Shown piece by piece: positions 9,061 to 61,640 of a stretch of 64,000 bases of DNA. The notes under the pieces were generated by a model. It saw only the letters and a program-made list of their open reading frames with translations. It was not told where the DNA came from and did no database searches. A program made the translations under genes and the position numbers. The first letter of the stretch is position 1. Each line of letters begins with the position of its first letter. Source of the stretch: Candidatus Nanoarchaeia archaeon (GTDB taxonomy: Archaea > Nanobdellota > Nanobdellia > SCGC-AAA011-G17 > JAGVZF01); NCBI GenBank assembly GCA_035288965.1, contig DATDYQ010000104.1, positions 10,089-74,088 on the forward strand. The letters run 5' to 3'.

Positions 9061-9590
9061 CAACAATAGAAAAAGATTCTTTTTGTGTTCAACAGCAAAA
9101 TAGAATTATTAGGGACACAATAGAATTAATTAATAAAAAAGAGCTTAACATATTACAATTAGGTTGCAATTTTATTGAAAATTCATTATTACTAACAAAA
9201 AACGAAAAATATAAGATAATCTTAATCGATGATAAAAATGAAACAATTAATTCCGATAAATTAAACATTTCAAAATCATCATTAACAAAAACGAACTTTG
9301 AGGATAACACTTTTGATCTAACATTTAACATAGATATAATAAATAAAACCCAAGATCCATTAAATATAATTAAAGAAATGGTAAGGATAACAAGAAAATA
9401 TGGTATGATCTTATTAATATTTCCAGGTGATTTTGATATAAAAAAGGTAATAAAAGATATAAACATTAATTTAATAGATGTAAAAATTCCAAATTTAGAT
9501 GCAAAGCTAGCTGAATATGGGAACTTCAAAACTTCAAAAAATCCCTTAAGTAAAAGTGGGAAAAATTATTTAATAATGTTCAAGGTTTAG
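9039..9590 (+). CDS. Hypothetical protein with a degenerate Rossmann/methyltransferase-like fold
   Basis: ILQLGCN, FDLTF and RKYGMILLIFPGD. Weak. Confidence 0.35.
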   Translation: MEEIKGITTIEKDSFCVQQQNRIIRDTIELINKKELNILQLGCNFIENSLLLTKNEKYKIILIDDKNETINSDKLNISKSSLTKTNFEDNTFDLTFNIDIINKTQDPLNIIKEMVRITRKYGMILLIFPGDFDIKKVIKDININLIDVKIPNLDAKLAEYGNFKTSKNPLSKSGKNYLIMFKV

Positions 9591-11094
9591 GGAATTCATA
9601 AATTACTGCTAATGCTTGTTTTTGTTCCTGATCTGCGAAATATGCCTGCACAGGTTTTAATCCATGTTTCTCAGGATATTCAAAATAAGCCTGTCCGGAA
9701 TTCTCAAATATAGAAACAACAAAATATCTTGGTTTATATTTATTAATTTCATTTTCTTCATAAGCATATCTTGTCTCTCTTTCAGAATAATAAGTATTTT
9801 GCGGTATAGAATTGCTTATGACAATCTCTCCCTTATTTGAATTTTCTTTTATCCATATTCCAACCAATTTTATTGGTTCGTATGAGCTAACTTTATTTTT
9901 TATTAATGCATCACTATATCTTAATTGTTGGAAACCAACTATCAATATTATTAACACAACAAAACCAATTGCAATTCTCTTGTCAAATTTTTTAGTATAA
10001 TCAGATATCCACATTAATGCTTTCGCAGCTATAATAAACACTGCAGGAAAGACAACTATAAGATACCTATCTTCTCCTCGCCCGCTTGTATTTATAGCAA
10101 CATATGTTAATAATATTAAAGGTATTAATATCCATAATAACAAAAATAAATCCTTTTTCAATTCAATGTTTTTATCTTTTATCATTAAATCAAAGCCCAA
10201 AATAAGATTAATCAATAAATATAATAATCCTAATAAAAATGTGATAAGTAAAACTATTTGAAGATAAGTTGGAAACATTTTTAGATAAACATTCCAAGCA
10301 GAATAAACAGCTTTTGTTTCAGGATTTGCAATGCTTGCTTGTACCGCTGCCAATCTAGGTATCGGGGCTCCTAACGTAGCCATAGAATAAAAGATATAAG
10401 GCAACAATAATATTAATATTATTATCGCTGCTATCCATACTTTTCTATTCTTCAAGAATTTAAATTTATCTGTTATCAATAGATATATCAACATCACTAA
10501 TCCAATAAATCCAACAGCATAATAACTCAAAAATCCTATTAAAATAGATAATCCGGAAAATAAAAGGTATTTAAGATTTATTTCTTTCACATAACCCTTC
10601 CAAAAACAATAAACGGCAACTGTAACAAAAGCTAATGTTGGTGCTTCTGACATGAATCTTAAAGAATAAAATAAATGTAGATAAAAAACAGATAAAAATG
10701 CTGTTGCAATAATCCCGATTTTTTTATCAAAAATTTCTTTTCCTAAAAGATATGTAAAAATAACTGCCACTATTGAAAATAATGTTTCAATAAGTCTAAT
10801 AAAAAATTCAGAAGCTCCTATCTTAAATAATAATCCCCAAAATAAGGGTAATAAAGGTTCTCTATATGGAAACCATCCTGTATTTGGTGTATTAAAAGCA
10901 TAATGTTTTGCCTGCAACATCATCTCAGCTTCATCCCACCATAATGGTTGATGGGAAGCAACAAATAAATAATAAAGTCTTATTATAATCCCAATGCTAA
11001 TAACAACCAATGCTATTATGTTTAATTTATCACTAAAAAATCCTTTTTTCTGTTCTTTAGTTTCAATTTTAATCTCTGTAGGTTTAACTTCCAT
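9580..11094 (-). CDS. Membrane GT-C glycosyltransferase (ArnT/PMT-like, PF13231-type)
   Basis: Multi-TM protein with a WWDEAE loop, then 'REPLLPLFWGLLFKIG...' typical of the GT39/GT83 family. Confidence 0.55.
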   Translation of the reverse strand: MEVKPTEIKIETKEQKKGFFSDKLNIIALVVISIGIIIRLYYLFVASHQPLWWDEAEMMLQAKHYAFNTPNTGWFPYREPLLPLFWGLLFKIGASEFFIRLIETLFSIVAVIFTYLLGKEIFDKKIGIIATAFLSVFYLHLFYSLRFMSEAPTLAFVTVAVYCFWKGYVKEINLKYLLFSGLSILIGFLSYYAVGFIGLVMLIYLLITDKFKFLKNRKVWIAAIIILILLLPYIFYSMATLGAPIPRLAAVQASIANPETKAVYSAWNVYLKMFPTYLQIVLLITFLLGLLYLLINLILGFDLMIKDKNIELKKDLFLLLWILIPLILLTYVAINTSGRGEDRYLIVVFPAVFIIAAKALMWISDYTKKFDKRIAIGFVVLIILIVGFQQLRYSDALIKNKVSSYEPIKLVGIWIKENSNKGEIVISNSIPQNTYYSERETRYAYEENEINKYKPRYFVVSIFENSGQAYFEYPEKHGLKPVQAYFADQEQKQALAVIYEFPKP

Positions 11095-40534: not shown

Positions 40535-42205
40535 TTATCCACTATCATAAACATATATAGTTTGCTCTCTATTTTCACTTTTTAATATTATAGGATAATC
40601 TAATTCATAAGTAGAAATAATATAATCTGGTTTTACTTTTGTTTCATTTAAGTATTCTGAAACAGTATTTTTGTTCATCCAATATCCCATAACTAAAACT
40701 GATCTGTCTTTCTTTCCAAAAACATCTGTTCCTCTTCTAAAATCTTCATCTTCATTTCTTCTATCAAACATAATTAATGAATCTTCCTTGACATTTTTAT
40801 CCATCCATTTTCCCATCCAAGTTTGATCTTGCAAATACCAGTTTTCATAGGAATTATAAATTGCAATAGAACTTCCAAATAAGGTTATCAAAAAGAAAAA
40901 TACCATATAAATCTTTAATATTCTCTCTAATCTATAATTATAAATTTTCATAATCAAAAAAGGAATAAAAAACATGATTATCGCCAAGATTAAGACATTA
41001 TGTTTTGTAATCAATCCTAAAAATATTGTAAAAACTCCGATATAACTTAAAGATGAACTATTTATTGGTAATAAGCTTCTAAATGTTATCGTTGTTGTTA
41101 TCACAACCAAAATGCTCATTAACAATATCAAGATTTTTTTATTTGTTTTCTGTAGAATATTTTTCTCTATACTCACTGCACCTAAAATAATAATTAAAGG
41201 CAAAACTCCTTCTAAATATCTTCCTAAAACTCTTCCATTAAATATATTTTCTTTAGTTAACGGGAAACTACTGCTATGTGTAGCTGCTATAAAAATTAAA
41301 AATAATGAAGATAATATTGTTATTGCATTTAATAAATTTATTTTTTTATCTTGCTGTTTTTTTATATTTATTAAAAATCCTATAAAGAATAATATTCCGC
41401 TAGCTAATAAGATATATCCTACATCAATAATAATCCAATAAAAGAATTGTAACGGTGTAAAATTATTTTGTACAGCTGTTATATTTTCTCCATATCCAAA
41501 TAAACCACTTATAGAAAATCCAAATATGCTTAAATTTCTTATCAGCCAAGGTAAAACAACGATAAATGCAATCAAAAATAGTATAATCTTCTTCTTTATT
41601 TGACTATAATCCTTATCTCTAAAGAGTTTTATAAACAATATTATTACAATTGTTGGAATTAAAGATAAAGCTAATATTCTGGTTAAGTAGCTTAATCCTA
41701 AGAATATCCCTGCTAATACATCCCACCTTATTTTATTATCATTAAAAGATTTGTAAATAAAATAAATAGTAAATAAGAATAAAGGAAAAAATAAATTTTC
41801 ACTTAATATATAAGAAGAAAAAACAAAAAATGGCGGCATTATTCCGATTAAACTAGCAATCAAAAAAGATTTCTTCTTGTCAAAAAATTCCTTAGCAATC
41901 AACCAAGCTGGAAATATTATTAAACTAGATAATATCGCATTAATTATCTTAAAAATAAAATAGATTATTTCCATATTTTTAAAAATATAAGATATTGAAA
42001 TTACAATCGGATACAAGGGAGGATAAAGATAACTTGCTCTTCCATCAACAGTAAAACTTCCATCATGAAAAAAACTTCTAGCCATCTTCATATAATGGTA
42101 ATCATCAGCAAACGTGCTCGGAGATAAAACAAAAAAAGCAATAGCTATCTTTAACAAAACTAAAACAATAAATACAATCATTAACTTTTTAAAAAACCTA
42201 TCCAT
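40535..42205 (-). CDS. Membrane GT-C glycosyltransferase (ArnT/PMT-like)
   Basis: Multi-TM protein with the PF13231-like pattern 'YLYPPLYPIVISI...'. Confidence 0.5.
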   Translation of the reverse strand: MDRFFKKLMIVFIVLVLLKIAIAFFVLSPSTFADDYHYMKMARSFFHDGSFTVDGRASYLYPPLYPIVISISYIFKNMEIIYFIFKIINAILSSLIIFPAWLIAKEFFDKKKSFLIASLIGIMPPFFVFSSYILSENLFFPLFLFTIYFIYKSFNDNKIRWDVLAGIFLGLSYLTRILALSLIPTIVIILFIKLFRDKDYSQIKKKIILFLIAFIVVLPWLIRNLSIFGFSISGLFGYGENITAVQNNFTPLQFFYWIIIDVGYILLASGILFFIGFLINIKKQQDKKINLLNAITILSSLFLIFIAATHSSSFPLTKENIFNGRVLGRYLEGVLPLIIILGAVSIEKNILQKTNKKILILLMSILVVITTTITFRSLLPINSSSLSYIGVFTIFLGLITKHNVLILAIIMFFIPFLIMKIYNYRLERILKIYMVFFFLITLFGSSIAIYNSYENWYLQDQTWMGKWMDKNVKEDSLIMFDRRNEDEDFRRGTDVFGKKDRSVLVMGYWMNKNTVSEYLNETKVKPDYIISTYELDYPIILKSENREQTIYVYDSG

Positions 42206-42927: not shown

Positions 42928-44037
42928 GTGATAGTAATGATAGAAAAAGAGATACCACAAGTTGATTTGAAAAGGCAATATCATTCTATTAAAAAAGAAA
43001 TAGATGAAGCTATATTTAACATAATTGAAAACACTTCTTTTATTAATGGAAAAGCAGTACAAGAATTTGAAGAGGATTTTGCCAAATTTTGTAATGCTAA
43101 ATATTGTATTGGTGTTAGTTCAGGAACAAGTGCAGTAGAAGTTGCATTACAAGCATCTGGAATTAAAGCAGGAGATGAAGTTATCACAGTTCCTAATACA
43201 TTTATTGCTACAACAGAAGCAATAACAAGATTGGGAGCTAAATTTAAATTTGTTGATATTGATGAAAAAACTTATACTATAGATATTAATCAAATTGAAA
43301 AGGCAATAACATCAAAAACAAAAGCGATCTTACCTGTTCAATTATATGGACAATCAAGTGAAATGGATAAAATAAAAGAGATAGCTGAAATTTTTAATTT
43401 AAAAGTTATAGAAGATTGCGCACAGGCTCATGGAGCTGAATATAATAATAAAAGATTGCCTTATTCTTTAGTTGGAACCTTTAGTTTTTTCCCAGCTAAA
43501 AATCTTGGAAGTTTTGGTGATGCAGGAGCTGTTGTTACAAATGATGAAGAGATAGCAAATAAAGCTAGATTATTAAAAGATCATGGTAGAACAGGAAAGT
43601 ATGTTCATGAAATTGAAGGTTATAATCATAGATTAGATACATTACAAGCAGCAATATTAAAAGTTAAGTTAAAGAAATTGGATGAATGGATTGAGAAAAG
43701 AAGAGAAAATGTTGCATTATATAATGAATTATTAAGTGATAATATAATAAAACCGATAGAAAGAGAAAACTCTAAGCATGTTTATTATGTTTATACGATA
43801 AGGGTAAAAAATAGAGATGGATTACAAAAATATTTGAAAGAAAATAAGATATCTTCTCAGATTTATTATCCTATACCATTACATTTACAACCAGCTTATT
43901 CTCATCTTGGTTATAAAAAAGGAGATTTTCCAGTAACAGAAAAAGTTTGTGATGAAATCTTATCATTACCTTTATTTCCCGAGTTAACTAAAGAAGAGAT
44001 TGAATATATTAGTGAGAAAGTTAATTCATTTATTTAA
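42928..44037 (+). CDS. DegT/DnrJ/EryC1-family PLP-dependent sugar aminotransferase
   Basis: 'DLKRQYHSIKKEIDEAI', 'GVSSGTSAVEVAL' and 'EDCAQAHGA'. Confidence 0.85.
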   Translation: MIVMIEKEIPQVDLKRQYHSIKKEIDEAIFNIIENTSFINGKAVQEFEEDFAKFCNAKYCIGVSSGTSAVEVALQASGIKAGDEVITVPNTFIATTEAITRLGAKFKFVDIDEKTYTIDINQIEKAITSKTKAILPVQLYGQSSEMDKIKEIAEIFNLKVIEDCAQAHGAEYNNKRLPYSLVGTFSFFPAKNLGSFGDAGAVVTNDEEIANKARLLKDHGRTGKYVHEIEGYNHRLDTLQAAILKVKLKKLDEWIEKRRENVALYNELLSDNIIKPIERENSKHVYYVYTIRVKNRDGLQKYLKENKISSQIYYPIPLHLQPAYSHLGYKKGDFPVTEKVCDEILSLPLFPELTKEEIEYISEKVNSFI

Positions 44038-44476
44038 TCATATCTATAAATTTTTTTCTATATATCTTAATATCTTCGTTATTTATTTTTGAAATAAAAT
44101 TAATTAATTTACTATTAAAAATTTCAGCTTTTCTTATGGTATCTTTTACATCTTCTTTAGTTACCACAAAATCAACATAATATTGTTTGTCTATTCTTTC
44201 TTTTTTAGCATCAAAAATTATAGAAGCAGAATGATTTTCAGATTTAATCCCAATTTTAAATAATAACGCAGTTAATAGATGATACATGCTATAATAGGCA
44301 AGTCCGACAGATTCTTCAAATTTATCATTATTCAGAAGAATTTTTGCAGAGATAAGATTGCTTTCAGATTTTATAATATAAGATTGTTTTAATTCTTCAC
44401 TTGATTCAACTAATTCTAATTTTCCTTGCTTACGAAGTTTCTTCAAAAAATTTATTTTTTTCATAATATGCTTCAA
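44030..44476 (-). CDS. HEPN-domain protein (toxin-like partner of the adjacent nucleotidyltransferase)
   Basis: Helical HEPN-like N-terminal region. It overlaps the upstream MNT gene by about 47 nt. Confidence 0.5.
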   Translation of the reverse strand: MKHIMKKINFLKKLRKQGKLELVESSEELKQSYIIKSESNLISAKILLNNDKFEESVGLAYYSMYHLLTALLFKIGIKSENHSASIIFDAKKERIDKQYYVDFVVTKEDVKDTIRKAEIFNSKLINFISKINNEDIKIYRKKFIDMIK

Positions 44477-44987
44477 TGCCTTTTATTACTACATGATTTT
44501 TTTCTATTTCTTTTATTAACAAATTAGATTTATCATATTTTCCTATTTTCACACTTAATTTTGAATCTATTGAATTAATATCTTCCCTTATTTTTTTGCT
44601 ATCTGTTTCAATATAAACATCAATATCGCTATTTACTTTAGCAATTTCCTTTGCATATGAACCAAATAAGATAGCAAGTTTTATATCTTTATTGGTTTGA
44701 ATTTTTTCTATTATTCTCCTTAAGCTTGGATATTTTTTTAATAATTTATTTAACTTATAATTTTCAGCAGAAAAAGCAAAACTTTTAGCTTCTATTGTTT
44801 TCTTTAAAAAATATTTATTGTTTTTTCCTTCTCTTTTGTAGTCTACAATATTTTCTTTATATAATTCTTTTATCTTTCTTACTATTATCATATGATTAGT
44901 ATTTAATCTTCTAGCAAGCTCCCTTATATGATATTCTGCATTAAGTAATTCATTTACGATTTCTAATTTGTAACTCTTTTGTTCCAT
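44430..44987 (-). CDS. Minimal nucleotidyltransferase (MNT) with an N-terminal wHTH
   Basis: 'LAILFGSYAKEIAKVNSDIDVYIETD' (GS-x9-DxD). Confidence 0.65.
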   Translation of the reverse strand: MEQKSYKLEIVNELLNAEYHIRELARRLNTNHMIIVRKIKELYKENIVDYKREGKNNKYFLKKTIEAKSFAFSAENYKLNKLLKKYPSLRRIIEKIQTNKDIKLAILFGSYAKEIAKVNSDIDVYIETDSKKIREDINSIDSKLSVKIGKYDKSNLLIKEIEKNHVVIKGIEAYYEKNKFFEETS

Positions 44988-48692: not shown

Positions 48693-50594
48693 ATGAATCA
48701 AAACAAAAAAAGAAGGATTTTTTTCTCACTAACAATATTTATTGTTTTTTTAGCAGCTTTATTCTTAGTACAAAAATTTAGTTTAGCAACAGTTACAATG
48801 GGAGCATTCCCAACATACAGTAATATTTCAACAAATAATACTAATTACAGAGGTACTGGTGGGGTAATGTACAACTTATCAAAAAACGGTGAACAACCAC
48901 TATTTAACATAACTATAATGAATAATGGTCCTGATCCAGTATATCAAATTTATATTAGGGTTCCTACAGACTATCTTATCACTCCCGGTACAAACATTAC
49001 TTTTTATAATACCAACCTGGCTATAGCTGGTGCAAGACTAAATGATAGTAATGTATCCATATCAAGTAATGCAACCGATATTAATATTTCATTTGTTAAA
49101 AGTCTACCAAATGCAATGAACTTAACTTCTGGAAGTAATCTTACATTTAACACAGTTATCAATGTAACTCAAATAACAGCAACAGAAAATGCATATATTT
49201 GGCAGGTAATTTTAATAGATAATGCATCTACCACTACTGATAGAACTATGAGAACTTTAATTGATGGATTAGCACCAAGAGTTTCAAATGTTAATGCAAC
49301 TGATGGTACTTATACAAAAAATTCAGGAGATTTGAATAATCGATCTCATCTTAAAGGACATGGTGGTTATGCTAATATTTCTATAACTGCCACAATAGCA
49401 GATATGAACTTAAATCCAATAAGAAACTCCAGTGTTAGACTTGTAATGGCAATCAATCATTCAGGAGCTGGGTCACTTCCAATAATAAGTAACGGAAATG
49501 GTTATCAAGGAACATTCTTTAAAGTATATAATATGAGTACTGTTTCAACACACTCACCTTATATCTATAATGTTACTATACCAACTGGACTATTAAACGG
49601 AACAAATCACACAAGCTTCTTTATAGTTGTGAATGACAGCTTAGGATATCAAACAAATGAAACAAATGGTGGAATTTACTATAATTTCACTATTGATGAC
49701 GATAATCCAAACACCCCAACAGTAACGCCAACACCTTCATCAACAACTACAAATAATGCAGTTTCAGTTGCATGCAGTGGTGGTGGAGATCCAACATCTA
49801 ATACAGTTACATATTCAATATCAGTAACTAAACCTAGTGGAGGAGTTTTAATATCAGCAATAAACCCATATCAATTCACAGATACTTCAGCAACAGGAAC
49901 ATATACAATTACATGTACAGCAGCAGACTCAACAGGACACTCAACAACCTCAAGCTCAGGTTCATTCACCGTTACTTATGATGGTGGTGGAGGCGGCGGT
50001 GGAGGGGGCGGAGGTTCTGGAGGAAGTTCAGGTTCAAGAGGAACAGTTCCATCACTAGCAGAATCAAGCACTGCTCAATTAACATTAAACACAGGTGAAG
50101 CTAAGATACTTGAACTAGGAAATAGTTTAGTACAAAGTGTAACATTAGCAGCAGGACAAAAAATAGCTACCTCAATTAAAGTAGAAGGTATACCTGCACC
50201 ATCTGTAGCTGGTTACAAGATAATTCAGGCATTCAAACTAGAAACATCAATAACAAGGTCGATGTTAAGTAGCAACCCTACAATTACATTTACCTGTCCA
50301 GAAAATGGTAAAAAGATATCTCTCTTAAGAGAAGAAAGTACAGGAAAGTGGAATAGTTATCCTGCTACAAGACTTGGATCTGGTAAATGTCAAGCTACAG
50401 TTCCAGGATTCTCAAACTTTGCAGTAGCAGAAGAAGCAACACCAGTAACTCAACCTACTAAAGCTCCAACAACACAACCTGCACCTGTACAAAAAGCGCC
50501 AGCAGCAACAACAGCAATAATTATAGTGATTATTATAATAGTCATTATAATCTTATTAATTGTAGCAATGACAAAGAAAAAAGGAAAGAAATAA
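48693..50594 (+). CDS. Surface glycoprotein candidate with a signal/anchor, dense N-x-S/T sequons, a poly-Gly linker and a C-terminal TM with a KKKGKK tail
   Basis: N-terminal hydrophobic segment, many NxS/T sequons, GGGGGGGGGGGSGGSSGS, and a C-terminal 'IIIVIIIIVIIILLIVAMTKKKGKK'. Confidence 0.6.
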   Translation: MNQNKKRRIFFSLTIFIVFLAALFLVQKFSLATVTMGAFPTYSNISTNNTNYRGTGGVMYNLSKNGEQPLFNITIMNNGPDPVYQIYIRVPTDYLITPGTNITFYNTNLAIAGARLNDSNVSISSNATDINISFVKSLPNAMNLTSGSNLTFNTVINVTQITATENAYIWQVILIDNASTTTDRTMRTLIDGLAPRVSNVNATDGTYTKNSGDLNNRSHLKGHGGYANISITATIADMNLNPIRNSSVRLVMAINHSGAGSLPIISNGNGYQGTFFKVYNMSTVSTHSPYIYNVTIPTGLLNGTNHTSFFIVVNDSLGYQTNETNGGIYYNFTIDDDNPNTPTVTPTPSSTTTNNAVSVACSGGGDPTSNTVTYSISVTKPSGGVLISAINPYQFTDTSATGTYTITCTAADSTGHSTTSSSGSFTVTYDGGGGGGGGGGGSGGSSGSRGTVPSLAESSTAQLTLNTGEAKILELGNSLVQSVTLAAGQKIATSIKVEGIPAPSVAGYKIIQAFKLETSITRSMLSSNPTITFTCPENGKKISLLREESTGKWNSYPATRLGSGKCQATVPGFSNFAVAEEATPVTQPTKAPTTQPAPVQKAPAATTAIIIVIIIIVIIILLIVAMTKKKGKK

Positions 50595-50621
50595 ATACTT
50601 TTTCTTTATCTCTTTTTTTAT

Positions 50622-51170
50622 ATGAAAACAATAATCACAATATTAATCTTATTATTAATATCTATAAACATCGTTTCTGCAAATAAAGTTATCGAACTTA
50701 ATGATATCTCTAATGGAACATTAAATAATCTTTATGTTAAACAAAGTGATGCTATCTTATTTACTCTTTTTGATCATGAACATGCAATTGTAATAAAGAA
50801 AATACAATACAAAGGTGTAGATATAGCAATTTTTCCATATAGAAATAATACGGTTTACACAACATTAAAAGAAAATGCTCGAACTTATATAGATCTAAAC
50901 AAGGATGAAGTAGATGATATATCTATTAGACTAATAAATTACAAAAATGGAACTGATGGTAATGCAATGATAAGATTTGCTGTTCTTAAGAATACAGAAA
51001 AAGAAAATACTGAAGATAACTCTTCATCAAGTGTTACTGGAAATGTTGTGAATAATGATATCAAAAAACCTAATAACAATCTTTTATTTATCTTTATACC
51101 AATGGTTATAATATTACTAGCATCATTAATATTCTTATTAAGAAAGAAAAATTTAAATACTAAGGAATAA
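50622..51170 (+). CDS. Small secreted, membrane-anchored protein
   Basis: N-terminal signal-like segment and a C-terminal TM with a basic tail. Confidence 0.45.
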   Translation: MKTIITILILLLISINIVSANKVIELNDISNGTLNNLYVKQSDAILFTLFDHEHAIVIKKIQYKGVDIAIFPYRNNTVYTTLKENARTYIDLNKDEVDDISIRLINYKNGTDGNAMIRFAVLKNTEKENTEDNSSSSVTGNVVNNDIKKPNNNLLFIFIPMVIILLASLIFLLRKKNLNTKE

Positions 51171-51186
51171 TTCAATTCTTAGGTGA

Positions 51187-53751
51187 ATGATGAATAAAAA
51201 GAGGATATTACTAAATATAGTGTTGTTGTCTATTTTATTTCTAGCAATTAAAGAAGTATCTGCGGTACAACTCAATATAACTTTTATTAATGGAACAACA
51301 TATCCAAGTTTTCAAATAGGAAATTTCTCAAGAAATTACACAATAACAATAAATGTTTCCAATGTAGGAATAAGTAACGCTACTCAACCATTAAATGTAA
51401 CTTTATTCATGCCTCGTGGTATTCAAAACAGTACGGCTGCTGATTGCGGTTTAGACTTCAGGATTATAAATGATACCACTTCTTCATGTACCCTTAATAT
51501 AACAAGAATGGGAGCAGGAGTTATGGACGTTGTTCCATCAAACGCAACAATAATTGCTATAAATGTTACAACCTCTGTTTCAGCATTTACAAATTATACA
51601 TCAATGATATTCACAGCTAAAGCTTATTGTGGAAATTGTACTGGAACAGCTAATGTAACACAAACAGTAAGCTTATCTGGGAATCCTTATTATAAAAATC
51701 CTCGTCCATATGTACGTGATTATTCTTCATTCGAAAACGCAACGTTCATCTTTGATTCATGGAGTCAAATTCGTCCTTACTATGAAGTTTGGGCTCCAAT
51801 GATGACATTTAACACAACATCAAATAAGACTCAACTTGCAAACTTATCATTTGCTGATATAATCTATGCAGATCTTCCATTTATACAGGGTCCAAACTAC
51901 ATGGAAATGTGGGGTTATAGATTAAATTTCACAATTAATTTTAATAACACTGGTGGTTTAGGAAATACAACATTTAGAGTTTATACTCCTATTGTTGATC
52001 CAACCTATCAAATACTTTTCCCATTGCTGTCAATGAATGTTTCAGCTCCAGGATTACAGGCAACCCGTTCATTTATAATGGCAGTTCCAAGCGCTTCTTC
52101 ATTTTCAGTTTGGTATAATGGAACAGAATATACATCTCAATCATTAAATGCAAATTTCTCTATTAATGTTGCTTACAATACAGGATATGGACAAGGTGCT
52201 GACTCAAACCCAGAAAAATATTTATTATTAAATGTATCCTCCCCATCAACTCGTGGAAATGTAAGTCTTTCAGTTATGTTCACATTATTCTCTAATGAAA
52301 CAGCTGCAAGAACAGTCTCTCCATTATATGTTCAAAGTCAGGTAGGTTCAGGATTTATGGGTGGCGATGCCCCTCCTGTAATTGGTGGAAATGTAAGTCT
52401 TAATTATTCATTATACGCAGTAAACCTACTTCCAAATTATACTTTAGATGATCTAAGGTTAAAATTCTTATCTCCCACTTCAGTTACAATAGTTAATACA
52501 AGTGCTACCTATAATCTAACAGATAACTTAAACGTTTCATGGCGCAACAGTAAAATAACTACCCGTTCATCTTGGGAGAGCATAATGAATATAATTACTA
52601 GTAATATATCATTTAGTCTTGTAGATAATCTTGCTGGCTCTCCGAATATTGGAAGAAATATAACTCTAAATTTCACATATTTCGAAATTAATCTAACAAA
52701 CAATACATTTAATAATTGGCTTCCAAATTCATCTTTATCAAATATAACTGTAAACATGTCTGGAATACTTAGATTCCCAACTTTAAATAAAACAGTATCA
52801 ATCCCATGTACTTCAGGTGCCCACAATCTATATAATCTTTCAGTTTCTATAAGTCAACAAGGTGCATTAAATTTAACAGATGATATAGGATCTTGCTTTA
52901 ATGCAACAGTTACAGATGTTATACTTAGAATAGATAATACAGTAATGACAAATGCAAGTAATTTTACTGTAGGCAGTTTGGTTGTGAATAGTATCGGTCA
53001 AGGAACTCATACTGTTTCGGTTTCATGGAAATCTCCAGCAGCAGCATCCTCTTCAACATCATCTACTTCATCAGCAACATCATCAGGCGGAACAACATCC
53101 TCTGCAGCTGCTCCAACCGAAAAAGAACATACAATTGTAATTACTGAATTTAAACCAAATGTTCCAGTAACAATAGCACAAGATTATCCTGAACTTCCAT
53201 TAAAAGAATTAGTAATAACAACAAATGATAAGGCATCAAGTGTTAAAATAACAACTAAAAATCTTGAAGCTCTTCCAAAAGATACATCTGCTCCAGAAGG
53301 AGTCTTTATTAATTCATATTTCAGTGTAGAAAAATCCAATTTAGATAATGCAAAAATTAAGTCCGTTGATCTTAAATTCCAAGTTACAAAAGCTTGGTTA
53401 ACAGAAAATATCGTCGATAAAAACGATATTATATTACAACACTTTACTGAAGGTTCATGGAAGAAATTATCTACAAAACTTATTAGCGAAACAGCAGATT
53501 ATGGGTTGTATGAAGCTACAACAGATGGTCTATCAACATTTGCTATAACTAGTAATAAAGCAGCTCCATCAGTTCCAGAAACAACTGGAGAAGTAACTAA
53601 AGATACAGAAAAAACGCAACCTCCAGCAACAATTAAAAAATCTCCAAGTTCTTCTACAATTATAATAATAACTCTTCTAGCAATAATTGCAATAATGTTA
53701 ATTGTTTATTTTATCCGAGTAGGTAAAAAACAACATAAAAATTATTTATAA
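51187..53751 (+). CDS. Large surface glycoprotein candidate (sequon-saturated, Ser/Thr-rich, C-terminal TM anchor)
   Basis: Signal-like N-terminus. About 15 N-x-S/T sequons in the first ~160 residues. A poly-Ser/Thr stretch. C-terminal 'IIIITLLAIIAIMLIVYFIRVGKKQHKNYL'. Confidence 0.6.
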   Translation: MMNKKRILLNIVLLSILFLAIKEVSAVQLNITFINGTTYPSFQIGNFSRNYTITINVSNVGISNATQPLNVTLFMPRGIQNSTAADCGLDFRIINDTTSSCTLNITRMGAGVMDVVPSNATIIAINVTTSVSAFTNYTSMIFTAKAYCGNCTGTANVTQTVSLSGNPYYKNPRPYVRDYSSFENATFIFDSWSQIRPYYEVWAPMMTFNTTSNKTQLANLSFADIIYADLPFIQGPNYMEMWGYRLNFTINFNNTGGLGNTTFRVYTPIVDPTYQILFPLLSMNVSAPGLQATRSFIMAVPSASSFSVWYNGTEYTSQSLNANFSINVAYNTGYGQGADSNPEKYLLLNVSSPSTRGNVSLSVMFTLFSNETAARTVSPLYVQSQVGSGFMGGDAPPVIGGNVSLNYSLYAVNLLPNYTLDDLRLKFLSPTSVTIVNTSATYNLTDNLNVSWRNSKITTRSSWESIMNIITSNISFSLVDNLAGSPNIGRNITLNFTYFEINLTNNTFNNWLPNSSLSNITVNMSGILRFPTLNKTVSIPCTSGAHNLYNLSVSISQQGALNLTDDIGSCFNATVTDVILRIDNTVMTNASNFTVGSLVVNSIGQGTHTVSVSWKSPAAASSSTSSTSSATSSGGTTSSAAAPTEKEHTIVITEFKPNVPVTIAQDYPELPLKELVITTNDKASSVKITTKNLEALPKDTSAPEGVFINSYFSVEKSNLDNAKIKSVDLKFQVTKAWLTENIVDKNDIILQHFTEGSWKKLSTKLISETADYGLYEATTDGLSTFAITSNKAAPSVPETTGEVTKDTEKTQPPATIKKSPSSSTIIIITLLAIIAIMLIVYFIRVGKKQHKNYL

Positions 53752-53756: not shown

Positions 53757-53853
53757 CGCCGCAGCCAGGATTTGAACCTGGACATCCTTTCGGAAACCAG
53801 CTATCTTTCTCAAGACTCAAGGCTGGCGCCATACCAGATTAGGCGACTGCGGC
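53757..53853 (-). tRNA. tRNA-Ser (anticodon UGA) with a ~13-nt intron in the anticodon loop. No encoded CCA.
   Basis: The reverse complement folds as a 7-bp acceptor stem GCCGCAG/CTGCGGC plus discriminator G. D-arm is GCC-TAATCTGGTAT-GGC. Anticodon stem is CCAGC/GCTGG, with 20 nt between the halves (loop CTTGAG|A plus intron). There is a long variable arm (TCC-GAAA-GGA hairpin). T-arm is CCAGG-TTCAAAT-CCTGG. Confidence 0.75.
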
Positions 53854-53890: not shown

Positions 53891-54529
53891 TTAAAACACA
53901 GTCAACAAGTGCATTACTAATTTATCTGTAACTCTAAATAAATCTTTCCCGTCTTTTCCCTCTACAATAACACAATTTCCGTCAACTGTTATCTTGCTTT
54001 CATCTCCTAAAGTTAAAAGAATCACAGATTCTTCATTATTTGCATCTTTACATGTTTTCACAGGCAGCTCAAGTTCCTTTCCCCTATCTGTTTCCCTTGT
54101 TAATGCACTTATAGTATCAATTTTAAATACCCCATAATACGCCATTCCCGTTACTCTATTAGTTTCAACTATTGCCAAGACGCTCTCACTATCAGTTAAC
54201 TTTGGTAAATCAGGATCCTGAGTGATATAGATTTTTTCCTTTGCTTTATTTTCATTATATAAAATTACCTCTCTTGCTTTTTCATCCAATTTAATATCCT
54301 CTAGTTCTTTCGGGCTATGTCTGAATGGTATTAAGAATTTATTATTTCCAGAATAAGCTTCTAAAACATAATTTAATTCATTATCTGTTTTAACAACGTT
54401 AAATCTAAATTTTTCTCCTTGATCATTCTCCCAAGTAATCACACTCTTCTTATAATTAAAATAAAATATACTAGAAAAAAAAACTATACTAAAAATTAAC
54501 AACAATATCAAAAATGTTTTCGTTTTCAT
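53891..54529 (-). CDS. Hypothetical N-terminally anchored protein, paralogous to the next gene
   Basis: N-terminal TM. The C-terminal 'DGNCVIVEGKDGK' resembles 'EGNCFKIEGSIF' in the neighbour. Confidence 0.45.
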   Translation of the reverse strand: MKTKTFLILLLIFSIVFFSSIFYFNYKKSVITWENDQGEKFRFNVVKTDNELNYVLEAYSGNNKFLIPFRHSPKELEDIKLDEKAREVILYNENKAKEKIYITQDPDLPKLTDSESVLAIVETNRVTGMAYYGVFKIDTISALTRETDRGKELELPVKTCKDANNEESVILLTLGDESKITVDGNCVIVEGKDGKDLFRVTDKLVMHLLTVF

Positions 54530-55086
54530 ATTACACCTAATATTTTATAATTTATATAATCTATGTTGTTAGATATCTGAAATATGCTTCCTTCAATTTT
54601 AAAACAATTTCCTTCTTTACTAATAATATTCTTTTCATCATTAATTTTAAAATAAAATCCATTAACTTTGCTACAATCAACTATGGGCAATTCATTATCG
54701 CATTCTTTTTCATTCAAACAGGCTCTTAATCCTCCCTTTCCGGTCAATCTTAAAACTAATTCAAGTTTAGCTAGGCTATCTTCTATATCATTTTTACTAA
54801 AATCATATATAATGTAATTATTTCCAGTTAAACTTAAATCATTAACCTCATAACCTTTCAATTGATCTGGTAAATTATCGAAAACAAATTGTTGCCCGTT
54901 TATGCTCGTTACCCATCTTCCATTTACTAAATCAAATTTATATCCATTAATCTTTTTTGTTGTAGCCAAATTACTATTACTGTTTCCCTGTAAGGCAATA
55001 AATCCAAGTACGCTAGTTATCATAATTATCACTAAGAATAAAGTGATTAAAATCTTTGCAGTTTTTTTGTTATCTCTCATAATCAA
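54526..55086 (-). CDS. Hypothetical N-terminally anchored protein (paralogue)
   Basis: As above. The two genes overlap by 4 nt. Confidence 0.45.
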   Translation of the reverse strand: MIMRDNKKTAKILITLFLVIIMITSVLGFIALQGNSNSNLATTKKINGYKFDLVNGRWVTSINGQQFVFDNLPDQLKGYEVNDLSLTGNNYIIYDFSKNDIEDSLAKLELVLRLTGKGGLRACLNEKECDNELPIVDCSKVNGFYFKINDEKNIISKEGNCFKIEGSIFQISNNIDYINYKILGVI

Positions 55087-56704: not shown

Positions 56705-59047
56705 TTAAGCAACTGTTATTCCGCTAAGGTCTAATGAAGTTCCTGTTACGGTAACTGATGTCTTTCCAGACAATAAGGCTTTTATGTTTGCATCATCGTA
56801 GTTAGCTAACACTACACCAGCTCTTCTAGTGTCTGCTGCTTCCCAGCCTGCTGCAACCAATGCCCAGTTTGCTCCATTAGCTTTCAACTGGATAACTGCT
56901 GTGTCCTGTGCTATTCCAGATGCTGCTCCACATGATCCAGCTGCAACTCCAAGTAAACTTGCTGTTACACTGTTAACACATGGTCCACCAACTGAGATTA
57001 CATTCCAAGAAGCTATGTTTGTTACTTGACTTGCTTTCTTTGGTGTTGGTGCTGTTGTTGTTACACTTGGTGTTTCATCTCCAGAAACTTCTGTTCTAGT
57101 TCCACCGACCTTTGCGATTCCCTGTACTAAATCGCTTGGTATCATTAAGTGTACTCTATCACTTGAACCTTGGCTATCTGGGTTTTCGATGATAACTCCA
57201 AATTTTGTTCTATGGTTTTCATCCTTTGCACCAAGAAGAGTACAAGTAACTCCTGTTGGGCACCAAGATACATCTATTCCCTCAGCTGTACTTCCGCCAG
57301 CAGTTGCTCCAAGTGTTCTAAATTTACCCCCACTTAAAGCCCAAGTTGTGGTTATATTTTCTGTTTCAGCAAAGTCTGTTGTTTCTAACAATCTTAATGT
57401 AATATTGTAGTGCCCTGTTGTTGTTTGGTTTACTGCATTTAAATGCAATTGTGCGTTATTGTTCTTTGTATCTCCAAAGTTTACGTGTGCAAACTTAGTA
57501 GACATATTTCCTTGAACTCCTTCACCACCTTCTGGATCACTTATATTACCTGCATACACTATATCTTTTACATCGTTATCATAGTAAAACAACATAGTTG
57601 CGTTGTGTCTTGCATCAAGTACATCTGTGTAGAAATAAATATCTTTAGTCTTCTTTTCTGTAGTTACATTATTGTCTGCCCAGTTTCTAGAAGTTCCATC
57701 GCTATCTGCATCTACCACTAAACCTTCTGATTGGTCTGTGTAAATGTGTACAGCTTGTGCACTAGAAGGTACTCCTGCGATACCTGCAACAGATAAATCT
57801 GCACTAGATAGATATTCAAACCACAAATCCATGTAATCATCATCTGCTACATTTAATTTATCATAACAGACGCTTACATAATTTTCTGGGTATGAAATAC
57901 ATTCTCCAGCTGCAACAGCTCCTCTAGCTTTAGTATCTCTTAAGAAGTTATTTCTAACTCCAAATTTAATACCTCCAACATAGATTCCTGAGTTGTTGTT
58001 TACAATGCTTGTAGCCGAATTACTCGTTAATGCACCGATGTCCCATTTCCAATCTGGACTTTGTTCTGGTTCTCCAATATAAGAGTCTCCATTTTTATAG
58101 GTCTTTGTAGCTTCTTTTCCAACAATAAGTGTAGCTGATCTTTCAGCTGTTGTATCAGAATAGAATGTTTCATCTACTTTGACGTCAAGTCCGTTTACGG
58201 TTTCTGTACTTCCACCGCTTACAGATTCTTGAACACCATCGACACTTAAGATTACAGATTGTGGGCTTGTTCCAGATGCTACATTGTTTAATGTAACTGT
58301 CTTTCCATCAACTACAATACTTTCTCCAACTTTTAAGAAGTATTCAGCTCCTACATTTGCTGTAAATTGTGTTGCAGATATGGTTGTTATCTTTAATTTT
58401 CTTCCCAAGAAATTTAATTCTAATGGGTAGTTTGTATTTACTGGATTTGCTGAGTCGCTTAAGTTAATGGCTTCATCAAATGCATAGTAGTAATACAATC
58501 CATTTCTTGGTATTTCTAAGAAAATTCCATCTTTATAATCGTCTTCGCCACTTGTCAAGCTTGTCTGGAATGCTGTTCCATTACTTAGGGCATTTATCAC
58601 AACATGTTCGCTAATATCATATTGTGAACTTCTCCAGTTCATTTCTGTGTCAAGTAAGCTTTTTATATCTCCATCGTCTAAGTCTGCATCTATCTGGTTT
58701 GTAGTTGTTAAAGCAACTCCAAGAGGAATATCTTCTTCAACACCACCTGTTATTGTGGTTTTTGTTACAGTTCCTCCGCCTCCACCGCTTCCAGAAGTTA
58801 CAGATCCAGCAATTTTATTAGAAATAGCTGTTAAAGCTACATTATCTTCTGATGCTGCTGTATCACCAAAGACATAAGCTAAATTTTGGTATTTCCCATC
58901 CATAACAAATGGTTTTGGGTAATCACCTAATGTGTAACTTGCTGCTAAAGCTCCGCTCATCGTAGCTCCGAGCATTGCTACACCTGCTCCGACAGCTGCT
59001 ATTTTTCTAATTGCTGTCTTCGCTTTTATCGCAAAGTTTTCTTGCAT
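56705..59047 (-). CDS. S-layer-like major surface protein. The likely start is the ATG at 59047, whereas the ORF track begins at a GTG at 59059.
   Basis: Signal peptide MQENFAIKAKTAIRKIAAVGAGVAMLGATMSGALAA. 'VMDGKYQNLAYVFGDTAASEDNVALTAISNKIAGS' resembles the Methanococcales S_layer_N pattern. C-terminal Cys-containing domain. Markedly GC-richer codon usage. SD GGAGGTG sits 9 nt upstream. Confidence 0.7.
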   Translation of the reverse strand: MQENFAIKAKTAIRKIAAVGAGVAMLGATMSGALAASYTLGDYPKPFVMDGKYQNLAYVFGDTAASEDNVALTAISNKIAGSVTSGSGGGGGTVTKTTITGGVEEDIPLGVALTTTNQIDADLDDGDIKSLLDTEMNWRSSQYDISEHVVINALSNGTAFQTSLTSGEDDYKDGIFLEIPRNGLYYYYAFDEAINLSDSANPVNTNYPLELNFLGRKLKITTISATQFTANVGAEYFLKVGESIVVDGKTVTLNNVASGTSPQSVILSVDGVQESVSGGSTETVNGLDVKVDETFYSDTTAERSATLIVGKEATKTYKNGDSYIGEPEQSPDWKWDIGALTSNSATSIVNNNSGIYVGGIKFGVRNNFLRDTKARGAVAAGECISYPENYVSVCYDKLNVADDDYMDLWFEYLSSADLSVAGIAGVPSSAQAVHIYTDQSEGLVVDADSDGTSRNWADNNVTTEKKTKDIYFYTDVLDARHNATMLFYYDNDVKDIVYAGNISDPEGGEGVQGNMSTKFAHVNFGDTKNNNAQLHLNAVNQTTTGHYNITLRLLETTDFAETENITTTWALSGGKFRTLGATAGGSTAEGIDVSWCPTGVTCTLLGAKDENHRTKFGVIIENPDSQGSSDRVHLMIPSDLVQGIAKVGGTRTEVSGDETPSVTTTAPTPKKASQVTNIASWNVISVGGPCVNSVTASLLGVAAGSCGAASGIAQDTAVIQLKANGANWALVAAGWEAADTRRAGVVLANYDDANIKALLSGKTSVTVTGTSLDLSGITVA

Positions 59048-59322: not shown

Positions 59323-59757
59323 TCATTTTTCGCAGATTTTTAGTTTGATTTCTAGCTCATTAACAAAGTAAGGACTAGAACTTATTCCTTGCTCACATTT
59401 CCCGAGATTAAAGCAACTTTTATCTTCATTTTTGATTTCTAGCAAATAATTGCTTGTTATTGTTTTATCAAAGATTGATTTAGCTTCTTTTTCTAAAAAA
59501 TCGCAAGCATTCTGTCCGCAAAAATCGCTATTTTCACAACAATTTTTCATAGCTTCTTTTAAATTACTATCACAACTGCTAGCTTTAACTAAAGCATTAA
59601 CTAGATTATTTGCTTTTATGCTATTCAATGTATTATCCTGATTACTTTCAACTTTAGTTATGCTAAATCTTAAAGCAACAATTCCTATTATAATTATGAG
59701 TAATAATACAACTGTTATTCCAATCATATCAATCTGCCCTTTACCCATACCATTCAA
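59323..59757 (-). CDS. Prepilin-like protein with a class III (type IV pilin-like) signal peptide
   Basis: MNGMGKGQ|IDMIGITVVLLLIIIIGIVA. Confidence 0.5.
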   Translation of the reverse strand: MNGMGKGQIDMIGITVVLLLIIIIGIVALRFSITKVESNQDNTLNSIKANNLVNALVKASSCDSNLKEAMKNCCENSDFCGQNACDFLEKEAKSIFDKTITSNYLLEIKNEDKSCFNLGKCEQGISSSPYFVNELEIKLKICEK

Positions 59758-60250
59758 CCTCTAAAACACCTATTTTATACAAATTATCATTAGGATAAAA
59801 TATAGATATTGGAGTACTTACTTTCTTAACACTATCTGCATTAATTGATCCTGCTTCATATAAATCAAATATTCCACAATCTCTTATGTTTCCTTTTTGA
59901 CATATCTCTTCATTAGTTTCAGGGTAGATAACTTTAACAGTTAATTTACTCGCTCCAAATTCTTTTTTATACTCGCTAGAAACTTGGCTAAAAGCTACTA
60001 ATTTTAAAGCATCCAAACAATCTTCTTCTTGTTTATTACTCGTACATTTAAATTCAGCCATGTTTGGCAAATTATTTGTTAGTAAACTAAATCTTTCATC
60101 ATTAAATTTAACATTTTCATTCTTTATGCTTTCTGTAGTAAATCTGTAATAGAAAATAAAAGCTATCATGAAAATAACTACAAAAACAATTAAAACTAGC
60201 ATCGTTTCCTGAATCTGCAATTGTCCTCTTTTTAGTAAATTGTTATGCAT
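59741..60250 (-). CDS. Prepilin-like protein with a class III signal peptide
   Basis: MHNNLLKRGQ|LQIQETMLVLIVFVVIFMIAFIF. Confidence 0.6.
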   Translation of the reverse strand: MHNNLLKRGQLQIQETMLVLIVFVVIFMIAFIFYYRFTTESIKNENVKFNDERFSLLTNNLPNMAEFKCTSNKQEEDCLDALKLVAFSQVSSEYKKEFGASKLTVKVIYPETNEEICQKGNIRDCGIFDLYEAGSINADSVKKVSTPISIFYPNDNLYKIGVLEVEWYG

Positions 60251-61161
60251 CCCTCTCTCCCCAATCTATTATTCTGTTCATCAAGCTCTTTTTCATATAA
60301 ACTCAACAAATCATATTTTTTTTCTTCTATATCATCATTAATTTGATAAAATATGTTACTTGGATAACTACATTTTTTGTCAATCAAATTTGTCCTTTCA
60401 AGATAAATTTTGTTAATTAATCTTATTTTATTGATAGCTTCATTAAATCCGCAATTATAATTATCATTGTTGCTAAATATTGCTGCATATAAAAATTCTT
60501 CATTAAGGTAGGCTATTTCTTCAGATTCTAGAGGATAATTTTCACTTTCTTTAGGCACTGTTGGCATTTTTTGTCCAAAAGAAATTGTTTCTTTATCTAA
60601 ATTAATCACAATATGTTCATAATTCCATAGTGATTGTCGATTTATATTAAAAAAAGCTATAATCTTTGCATCTTCACCAATATCAACTAAACTCTCTGTT
60701 TTTATTACATTAATCTGTTTAGGAATGTCATCTATCAGTTTATCAACAAAATCTTCACTTTTTTTATTATAAAGAAAAACATATTCTTTATCTAAATCAG
60801 CAAAGTAAATAAGATTAGTAATAGGATAAGGGAAATTTAATCTTTTTACCCAAACAAATGCCTTCTCATTAACAGTATCTGCAAATAATATTTTATCATC
60901 AAAGCTTTGACTAAACTCTCCCAAACTTATTTCATTGCAATTAATTTCAACATCTTTACTTCCGATATTTATTTCAGTATACAAATTATTATTATTTAAT
61001 CCATTAATGCCATTATTCAAGCTTCTCACAATATTGGCTTGCTCTCTTTTATCTTGTAATGATTTATATCTTATTCCAAATCCAGCAAAAAATATTAATA
61101 ATATAATTCCAGCAACTAAAATAAAAATCCAGTTAAACTGATAATCTTGTCCTTTTTTCAT
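60232..61161 (-). CDS. Prepilin-like protein with a class III signal peptide
   Basis: MKKGQ|DYQFNWIFILVAGIILLIFFAGF. Confidence 0.6.
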   Translation of the reverse strand: MKKGQDYQFNWIFILVAGIILLIFFAGFGIRYKSLQDKREQANIVRSLNNGINGLNNNNLYTEINIGSKDVEINCNEISLGEFSQSFDDKILFADTVNEKAFVWVKRLNFPYPITNLIYFADLDKEYVFLYNKKSEDFVDKLIDDIPKQINVIKTESLVDIGEDAKIIAFFNINRQSLWNYEHIVINLDKETISFGQKMPTVPKESENYPLESEEIAYLNEEFLYAAIFSNNDNYNCGFNEAINKIRLINKIYLERTNLIDKKCSYPSNIFYQINDDIEEKKYDLLSLYEKELDEQNNRLGREGCITIY

Positions 61162-61640
61162 CTACTAACACTTACATAATCTCCCTTATTCTCTAAAGTT
61201 ATTCTCATATCAGTTACACATAATGGATTTTCTATTGGTTTAATATGTTCAACAAAAAATCTAACTTTACTCAAGCTTTGTCCTCTCTGTGGAACAAAAA
61301 ATAAATTATTTTGGCTTCCCGAATCTAAAGAATCTCTAACAACTTGATCTATTAATTCATCATCAATTATATCATTTAATGGCATATCAACATCAACAAA
61401 ACAAATCTCTCGAACTTTGCTTGGTAATATTATATCATCTAATTTTATTGAACTTCCTTTATCTAAACTATAAACATCATTAACTTTATTTTTAATGCCA
61501 TCAATAAATAAAACAATCTGCCCTTCATCACCCAAATCTTTAAAATTTTTTATTGCTCTATATCCAAATATTACTATCAAACCAATAACAACAATCGCAA
61601 AGATATAAATAAAAATTAACTGATTCTGCCCCTTTTTCAT
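61158..61640 (-). CDS. Prepilin-like protein with a class III signal peptide
   Basis: MKKGQ|NQLIFIYIFAIVVIGLIVIFGY. Confidence 0.6.
   Translation of the reverse strand: MKKGQNQLIFIYIFAIVVIGLIVIFGYRAIKNFKDLGDEGQIVLFIDGIKNKVNDVYSLDKGSSIKLDDIILPSKVREICFVDVDMPLNDIIDDELIDQVVRDSLDSGSQNNLFFVPQRGQSLSKVRFFVEHIKPIENPLCVTDMRITLENKGDYVSVSR

Follow-up and report, generated by a model that had tools for sequence, protein, structure and literature searches.

Sequon-saturated surface proteins of a Nanoarchaeia archaeon: probable membrane-anchored N-glycoproteins with an uncharacterised beta-rich ectodomain

Envelope proteins of archaea are often heavily N-glycosylated. The DPANN archaea are obligate symbionts whose contact with hosts and viruses takes place at the cell surface, of which, to our knowledge, almost nothing is known beyond two or three cultivated strains. 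Glycoproteomics has revealed N-glycosylated surface proteins in one DPANN group, the Nanobdellales (bioRxiv 10.64898/2026.06.04.730037, citing Nakagawa et al. 2024), and proteins of the layout considered here have been described in Nanobdella aerobiophila (bioRxiv 10.1101/2023.10.27.564410). In the Sulfolobus envelope protein SlaA, one glycosylation site per 30–40 residues has been called a 'remarkably high' density (PMC2948927). Two neighbouring genes, encoding proteins of 633 and 854 residues (p633 and p854), were analyzed in 64,000 nucleotides of DNA from Candidatus Nanoarchaeia archaeon (NCBI GenBank assembly GCA_035288965.1, contig DATDYQ010000104.1, positions 10,089 to 74,088 of the forward strand). 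This whole stretch, of ~29% GC, is called the window, and coordinates below refer to it. The ectodomains of p633 and p854 are saturated with the sequon N-x-S/T, and both are probably type-I membrane-anchored cell-surface glycoproteins of this DPANN organism, substrates of AglB N-glycosylation retained by a transmembrane (TM) helix. Computation established their architecture, the enrichment in sequons and how these are conserved and coupled, as well as fold class and synteny.

p633 (48693–50594, + strand) contains 25 sequons, all within residues 44–331, and p854 (51187–53751, + strand) contains 48, all within residues 30–592. Counts were compared with those obtained in 2000 shuffles of the residues of each protein. 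Shuffled p854 sequences held 17.8 ± 3.6 sequons (z 8.5), shuffled p633 sequences 12.7 ± 3.1 (z 4.0), and none of the 2000 reached the observed number in either case. Sequons take up 59% of all the Asn residues of p854, and 44% of those of p633. Control motifs (S/T-x-N, Asn with Ser/Thr at +1 or +3, D-x-S/T, Q-x-S/T) are at or below expectation in both proteins. The 55 other open reading frames (ORFs) of at least 100 residues in the window hold 92 sequons in 18,283 residues (0.50 per 100 residues), and the densities of p854 (5.6) and p633 (3.95) are 8–11 times this background. Since observed/expected ratios are 2.64 for p854 and 1.93 for p633, vs 0.86 for 49 window ORFs (six exported neighbours left out), the density exceeds that of an Asn-rich proteome background after normalization, a comparison singled out by an earlier sequence-only reading of this DNA.

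That reading had noticed about 15 sequons in the first ~160 residues of p854 and a similar trend in p633; 15 are indeed counted in the first 162 residues, and the p633 figures bear it out. It had also described the pattern as continuing throughout p854, which is incorrect, because no sequon follows residue 592. The last 262 residues of p854 and the last 302 of p633 have none; enrichment is confined to the ectodomain, and ends at the linker. These C-terminal parts are Asn-poor and not significantly depleted, with 0 sequons against 2.0 and 1.1 expected when the tails only are shuffled. The stalk regions of ten proteins contain 11 sequons vs 13.5 expected, the stalk of one protein (P0005) alone holding 8. 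Depletion of the stalks had been considered, and was dropped on the evidence of the tail shuffles, which denote a mere lack of enrichment. The middle residue of the sequons is hydrophobic in 64–71% of the cases.

The ectodomains (48789–49697 and 51265–53031) are nearly devoid of charge, with Lys at 1.4–1.7% and Glu at 1.0–1.4%; the stalk domains measure 7–11% Lys and 7–8% Glu. Judged from composition, the protein surface beneath the presumed glycans is nearly uncharged.

The N-x-S/T tripeptide itself is under selection, and is kept as a unit. This follows from the conservation of positions, from the coupling of Asn to Ser/Thr, and from selection in the opposite direction in neighbouring genes. 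In p854 and a 40%-identical homolog, 24 of the 48 sequons occupy the same alignment column, against ~3 expected at random, and 63% of sequon Asn residues are conserved, vs 30% of other Asn residues. This comparison and the family-wide one that follows point to purifying selection on the sites. In 27 members of the p854 family, which share ~30% identity, the ectodomain always carries 4.7–8.2 sequons per 100 residues. At thirty alignment columns, 50% or more of the members carry a sequon, and the sequons at p854 positions 417, 550 and 592 are found in at least 92%; N95, N443 and N491 also rank among the best-conserved sites. Over the 27 members, conservation measures 0.50 for sequon Asn and 0.39 for other Asn, a borderline contrast (P 0.05); the argument is carried by the pairwise contrast and the coupling test. 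The latter was made on 51 Asn-rich columns. Ser or Thr is found at +2 in 75% of the sequences having Asn and in 27% of those lacking it, the background being 23% (odds ratio 8.2), and no other offset rises above background. Both Ser and Thr occur at +2 in 38 of the 51 columns.

Six ORFs with N-terminal hydrophobic segments, all on the − strand (53891–54529, 54526–55080, 59323–59748, 59741–60250, 60232–61161, 61158–61640), have no sequons at all, vs 10.3–10.7 anticipated from composition, or 9.2 after calibration on the window (P ~1e-4). Sequons look purged from these exported-looking neighbours while piled up in p633 and p854, which implies that they are of consequence to this organism. The N-termini of four of the six are pilin-like, with a KGQ or RGQ motif in three of these. 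Among the pilin-like neighbours, two begin with MKKGQ and one with MGKGQ, sequences resembling class III signal peptides.

p633 and p854 are laid out alike: a Sec-type signal peptide is followed by a sequon-dense ectodomain and a flexible linker, then by a stalk domain and a Pro/Thr-rich spacer, and finally by a single TM helix with a short Lys-rich tail. The predicted signal peptide of p633 (residues 1–32, 48693–48788; all segments of the two proteins are on the + strand) features KKRR, a hydrophobic core (Kyte-Doolittle 2.6) and a terminal SLA. The ectodomain (residues 33–335, 48789–49697) has one sequon per 12 residues, and is made of 14% Asn, 1.7% Lys and 1.0% Glu. It is followed by a sequon-free Ig-like module (residues 336–430, 49698–49982), which is rich in Ser/Thr, has a conserved pair of Cys residues, matches Big_13 weakly (E 0.011), is kept in the homologs P0009 and P0010, and by eye resembles regions of P0004, P0006 and P0011. 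The Gly/Ser linker (G11-SGGSSGS, GGGGGGGGGGGSGGSSGS; residues 431–448, 49983–50036) precedes a divergent PGF-pre-PGF-like stalk (residues 449–585, 50037–50447) ending in VPGFSNFAV. The protein terminates with a Pro/Thr spacer (586–607), a TM helix (608–626) and the tail TKKKGKK (together 50448–50591), as delineated by hydropathy.

In p854, named by NCBI as a PGF-pre-PGF domain-containing protein, the predicted signal peptide (residues 1–26, 51187–51264) features KKR, a hydrophobic core and a terminal VSA. The ectodomain (residues 27–615, 51265–53031), again with one sequon per 12 residues, is predicted to be an all-beta array of beta-sandwich domains. The linker (residues 616–645, 53032–53121) is the counterpart of the Gly/Ser linker of p633, and is rich in Ser, Thr and Ala (60% Ser+Thr). 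The PGF-pre-PGF stalk (53122–53556) matches TIGR04213 at residues 658–788 (E 1.1e-21, 77.4 bits vs a cut-off of 28). A Pro/Thr/Lys spacer (791–824), a TM helix (825–843) and the tail RVGKKQHKNYL (together 53557–53748), again set by hydropathy, close the protein. The C-terminal helices of the two proteins score 3.3–4.0 on the Kyte-Doolittle scale over 19 residues.

The sequence-only reading had noted signal-like N-termini in both proteins and, in p633, a C-terminal hydrophobic helix followed by KKKGKK. Both points agree with the segments listed above, and p854 likewise ends in a helix and a basic tail. Its remark that the Gly/Ser linker is no homopolymer artefact is sound, the 11 Gly residues being encoded by mixed codons; the length of 14 residues assigned to the linker has to be corrected to 18.

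The TIGR04213 hidden Markov model (HMM) matches neither the whole p633 protein nor its isolated stalk at E<=10. When the p633 stalk is compared with the pre-PGF domain alignment by hhalign, the two align over 124 columns (probability 85%, E 5.7e-6), and the stalk ends in the family motif PGFS-x-FA. Homologs of p633 with the same layout are P0009, P0010 and P0011. The proteins matched weakly in database searches (P0004–P0012) all consist of a head, a Gly/Ser linker, a stalk, a spacer, a TM helix and a Lys tail, with 3.6–7.1 sequons per 100 residues, and the linker lies at the position equivalent to that of p633 in P0009, P0010, P0004, P0006, P0007, P0011 and P0012. Because this layout recurs, the Gly/Ser linker is a feature of the family, and no oddity of p633.

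A third ORF, p182 (50622–51170, + strand), lies between p633 and p854, and has 4 sequons, with no enrichment. As in p633 and p854, its N-terminus features a basic n-region, a hydrophobic core and a small-x-small cleavage-type motif (VSA). The predicted signal peptide is followed by a stalk of a second type (~residues 35–124), an Asn/Ser spacer, a TM helix (154–172) and a basic tail. As read from these segments, p182 is a headless stalk on the same chassis as p633 and p854. Type-2 stalks measure ~80–90 residues, carry the signature F-x-I-x-x-E-H-x-I-x-I ... DLNxDGxxD-I-x-I-x-L, replace the PGF-pre-PGF domain in P0003, P0010, P0011 and P0012, and make up the whole ectodomain of p182. A search of the 59 collected proteins by hmmsearch, probably started from the p182 sequence only, gave no match; the relation to the alternative stalk of those four proteins was established by profile-profile comparison (hhalign probability 96.6%, E 5.5e-10). 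No Pfam model matches either type of stalk.

The p854 ectodomain defines a small, conserved and uncharacterised DPANN family, for which no Pfam or NCBIfam model was found. Word-indexed searches yielded few relatives (7, 3 and 5 proteins), and the family surfaced only when a profile of the ectodomain was searched exhaustively against 1.84 billion representative proteins. Forty clusters were retrieved, 28 of them below 1e-30, and most span the full ~580-residue domain. Members with a source name belong to Nanoarchaeia, Aenigmarchaeota and Naiadarchaeales; a single further fragment had been binned as Thorarchaeota. Nearly all are sequon-saturated, with z values of 6–13 in full-length proteins and 2.2–5.2 in short fragments, which lack the C-terminus; a TM helix and a basic tail are found in every member whose C-terminus is present.

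AlphaFold modelled the p854 ectodomain, from the 27-sequence alignment, as an all-beta structure of 38 strands (mean pLDDT 81.2, pTM 0.77). Full-length p854 modelled from a 3-sequence alignment was unusable (pLDDT 28.5), and only the ectodomain alignment gave a usable model. Foldseek matched this model to generic tandem beta-sandwich ectodomains only (TM-score ~0.15), including integrin alpha legs, alpha-2-macroglobulin MG domains, fimbrial subunits, MSCRAMM adhesins (FnBPA), DUF11, Big-1 and herpesvirus gC. The suggestion of beta-sandwich repeats made from the sequence is borne out by the model and its matches. Searches of the PDB with the ectodomain and stalk profiles gave nothing meaningful, no solved relative being detectable by sequence. 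In the model, sequons are found on 24 of the 38 strands, and 52% of sequon Asn residues lie in strands, vs 32% of other Asn residues. This placement and the hydrophobic middle residue would fit Asn and Thr side chains pointing outward on exposed strand faces.

The genes p633, p182 and p854 are co-directional, and separated by gaps of 27 and 16 nt. The first gap (50595–50621) is T-rich (CTTTTTC..CTCTTTTTTTAT), and could serve, within the cluster of three genes, as an attenuator or as an oligo-T terminator of the archaeal kind. AGGTGA precedes p854, GGTGA being a Shine-Dalgarno-like motif directly 5' of the gene. As the sequence-only reading had stated, the genes lie downstream of a glycosylation island and upstream of a tRNA and an S-layer gene, and all three were located. 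The island (9580–48542, genes on both strands), recognized by Pfam-type domain matches, includes two PMT_2 enzymes of the GT-C fold, a fusion of glycosyltransferases (GT) GT9 and GT2, GT2 enzymes, a Wzx-type flippase, a DegT aminotransferase, a hexapeptide acetyltransferase, a polysaccharide deacetylase and a GFO/IDH/MocA oxidoreductase. No exosortase/archaeosortase domain was found among the ~20 window ORFs scanned with Pfam. Within the island, a gene pair at 44030–44987 (− strand), encoding a HEPN protein (weak match) and a nucleotidyltransferase (NTP_transf_2/Polbeta), is toxin-antitoxin-like. The tRNA gene (53757–53853, − strand) is convergent with p854, and begins 5 nt past its stop codon. 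It was detected by Rfam (RF00005, 47.8 bits) and missed by ARAGORN; for this reason, and because of its length of 97 nt, it probably carries an intron. The S-layer-like protein (56705–59047, − strand; 780 residues) matches S_layer_C (PF05124, E 1.3e-9), has 10 sequons vs 9.3 expected, a neutral figure, and features a signal peptide and no C-terminal TM helix. It would need a partner for attachment to the membrane.

The module adjoins glycosyltransferase genes in three further loci, L005, L007 and L008; a PMT-like gene is found in the first two, and an S-layer gene in L007. In L005, a p633 homolog (25–28% identity) directly follows an island of GT1, GT2 and PMT genes, and is in turn followed by a p182 homolog (E 2e-9), which preserves the pairing of a p633-type with a p182-type gene. 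In L007, from Aenigmarchaeota, an S_layer_C gene, a p633-like protein with 37 sequons (z 6.3), a p854 homolog with 52 (z 8.4), a GT2 and a PMT-like GT-C enzyme are neighbours, and the S-layer homolog is not enriched. A 185-residue ORF after the L007 p854 homolog was compared with p182 and rejected as a homolog. In L008, a p854 homolog is followed by a 1126-residue protein with 60 sequons (z 12.8), and this by a GT2 gene. P0003, in L002, stands alone.

PMT_2 or PMT-like GT-C enzymes are encoded near these genes in three lineages (window, 9580–11094 and 40535–42205, both − strand; L005, 5678–7426; L007, 15071–16450). They are speculative candidates for O-glycosylation of the Ser/Thr-rich linkers. 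Paired sequon-rich proteins in L007 (7938–9851 and 10001–12559) and L008 (10001–12532 and 12640–16020) have C-terminal anchors near-identical within each genome (..AGLLLAALASYAYRH..KKKE, and GGFDSLLL..LAGGYYYFFMR.KRKGL), a likeness that recalls gene conversion or a sorting signal in common. In the window, the anchors of p633 and p854 are unlike each other.

On these data, p633 and p854 would each be exported via the Sec pathway, and their beta-sandwich ectodomains N-glycosylated by AglB, on the outer face of the membrane, at many of the 25 or 48 sequons. The donor would be a lipid-linked glycan, for whose assembly and flipping the adjacent glycosyltransferase/flippase island is most probably responsible. 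A Gly/Ser or Ser/Thr linker, the PGF-pre-PGF stalk and the Pro/Thr spacer would hold the glycan-coated head off the membrane, and the C-terminal TM helix and short Lys-rich cytoplasmic tail of each protein would anchor it, with no archaeosortase cleavage; p182 would use the same chassis without a head. The three proteins may together be part of the envelope, forming a dense glycan coat and possibly pillars tying the anchorless S-layer protein to the membrane. The earlier proposal of exported, anchored, putative N-glycan acceptors is in agreement with the register-specific enrichment, the conserved positions, the co-variation of Asn with Ser/Thr and the synteny with glycosyltransferases. We infer that glycans are attached, which pathway makes the donor and what part the proteins play in the envelope.

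Several points weigh against this scheme. Occupancy of any sequon of p633 and p854 is putative, and signal peptides and TM helices were called by sequence inspection and Kyte-Doolittle hydropathy alone. P-values from the family alignment are inflated by shared ancestry, and the argument rests on effect size. Genes of the island are mostly on the strand opposite to p633 and p854, and co-regulation is thus only putative. The STT3/AglB motif WWD[YWFN]G is missing in the six frames of the 64-kb window, as is a WWDxG-type motif, with H also allowed at the fourth position, in loci L001–L008; AglB must therefore be encoded elsewhere, if present at all.

An excess of N-x-S/T could be unrelated to glycosylation: an AT-driven composition with much Asn, Ser and Thr might produce it as a by-product, or the tripeptide might be a structural element of the beta-strands. 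The low GC of the genome and the make-up of the ectodomains are in line with the former, the strand periodicity suggested by the hydrophobic middle residue with the latter. Shuffles preserving composition, however, never reach the observed counts, the reversed motif and other offsets are flat or depleted, and other Asn-rich exported neighbours have no sequons. The drop of Ser/Thr at +2 to background where Asn is missing, and the free interchange of Ser and Thr, are not predicted by a purely structural role of beta-branched Thr. The shuffle, coupling and neighbour results largely refute this explanation, which we regard as extremely improbable. Hardly more credible is an archaeosortase-type sorting signal at the C-terminus, with cleavage of the TM helix and lipid anchoring of the protein, as in the PGF-CTERM substrates of ArtA. 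The C-termini do look tripartite, a spacer rich in Ser, Thr and Pro leading to the TM helix and this to a basic cluster; the stalk is a PGF-pre-PGF domain, so named by NCBIfam for its association with PGF-CTERM; and the adjacent pairs in L007 and L008 share near-identical anchors, as sorting signals do. The sequences at the TM junction, nevertheless, are ..APAATTA-IIIV.. in p633 and ..SPSSST-IIII.. in p854, with no PGF at either. The only PGF is that of p633, 36 residues upstream of the TM helix and inside the stalk domain. HMMs of CTERM sorting signals, PGF-CTERM (TIGR04126) included, do not match the tails of p633 and p854 even at E<=10, and the anchors of the two proteins are dissimilar. 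Moreover, archaeosortases have been reported only in a subset of Euryarchaeota, and PGF is essential, its permutation blocking the processing (PMC6098224). The PGF-CTERM/archaeosortase signal that the sequence-only reading had proposed to look for is therefore missing, and the TM anchor is probably kept.

Within the preferred reading of TM-retained glycoproteins, two functions may be considered. As a refinement more than a full rival, the proteins might be pillars similar to SlaB, the TM anchor and stalk tying the 780-residue S-layer protein to the membrane, with the glycosylated heads in the lattice or docked to it. This role is attractive because the S-layer protein, exported and without a TM helix of its own, is anchorless, and because the genes are syntenic in two lineages, the S_layer_C gene of L007 being directly upstream of the p633-like protein and the p854 homolog. 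On the other hand, p633 and p854 match no S-layer family (PF05124, TIGR01564; E<=0.1), an interaction with the S-layer protein is purely putative, and no S-layer gene lies within 10 kb of P0003 (L002) or P0018 (L008). We hold the pillar role as a tentative option. That the proteins are adhesins for the contact of DPANN cells with their hosts, in which the beta-sandwich array binds and glycans modulate or mask, is less likely still. Such folds on DPANN surface proteins are often proposed as host-interaction factors, and integrin alpha legs, FnBPA and fimbrial subunits are among the Foldseek matches. Yet these matches are generic and include no recognizable ligand-binding domain, the sequons, spread over most strands, leave little bare protein surface, and the family spans phyla with presumably different hosts.

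A broader view, which we regard as rather unlikely, is that the p854-type ectodomain and the linker-stalk-TM chassis make up a conserved envelope module of several DPANN lineages, with a conserved N-glycosylation array denser than any so far noted in a prokaryotic protein, co-inherited with glycosyltransferase/PMT genes and, in some lineages, with an S-layer gene. Cells would sort their surface proteins into 'fully cloaked' and 'naked' by sequon content, and, if so, what hosts and viruses actually meet on the outside would be the glycan cloak. The locus offers an unannotated ~580-residue ectodomain family, a defined linker-stalk-anchor chassis and ~30 conserved candidate glycosites, and indicates that PGF-pre-PGF domains occur with plain TM anchors outside the lineages bearing archaeosortases. 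The presence of saturated and sequon-free exported proteins in one neighbourhood may serve as a cheap genomic indicator of active, selective N-glycosylation in an uncultivated organism.

Proteins of this kind are already known in archaea. Compared by description, p633 and p854 are like the multi-sequon Ig-like surface proteins of Nanobdella aerobiophila in their signal peptide, their numerous sequons, their beta-sandwich folds and the TM helix at their C-terminus, and in the role proposed, as S-layer anchor or in surface interaction. In contrast to these, they add a defined linker-stalk-spacer chassis, and have a higher density, ~8 sequons per 100 residues of ectodomain; the name Nanobdella is absent among the 10 family clusters for which source names were looked up. 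SlaA and SlaB of Sulfolobus are heavily N-glycosylated, beta-rich envelope proteins, and SlaB is held by a TM helix at its C-terminus, which no archaeosortase processes. p633 and p854 are not similar to these proteins in sequence, and their ectodomains carry one sequon, a predicted site, per 12 residues, vs one site per 30–40 in SlaA; the glycosylated head and the TM anchor, divided between SlaA and SlaB, would be in one polypeptide. The haloarchaeal S-layer glycoprotein shares an N-glycosylated body (presumed in p633 and p854) and, close to the membrane, a segment rich in Ser/Thr, followed by a TM helix and basic residues. In contrast to haloarchaeal PGF-CTERM proteins, p633 and p854 feature no PGF-CTERM signal, and reside in a DPANN organism, outside the Euryarchaeota; among PGF-pre-PGF proteins, p854 has a bona fide domain and p633 a probable, divergent one. 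By analogy only, they recall HIV-1 gp120, a type-I membrane glycoprotein that carries ~24 N-glycans (PMC4488071), in that their exposed domain would be covered by N-glycans. Viral glycan shields differ in the glycosylation machinery and have no homology to p633 and p854, for which a shielding function is speculative. What is new here is the ectodomain family, the linker-stalk-anchor chassis with two interchangeable stalks, the density of one sequon per 12 residues, and the evolutionary evidence that sequons are kept as units.

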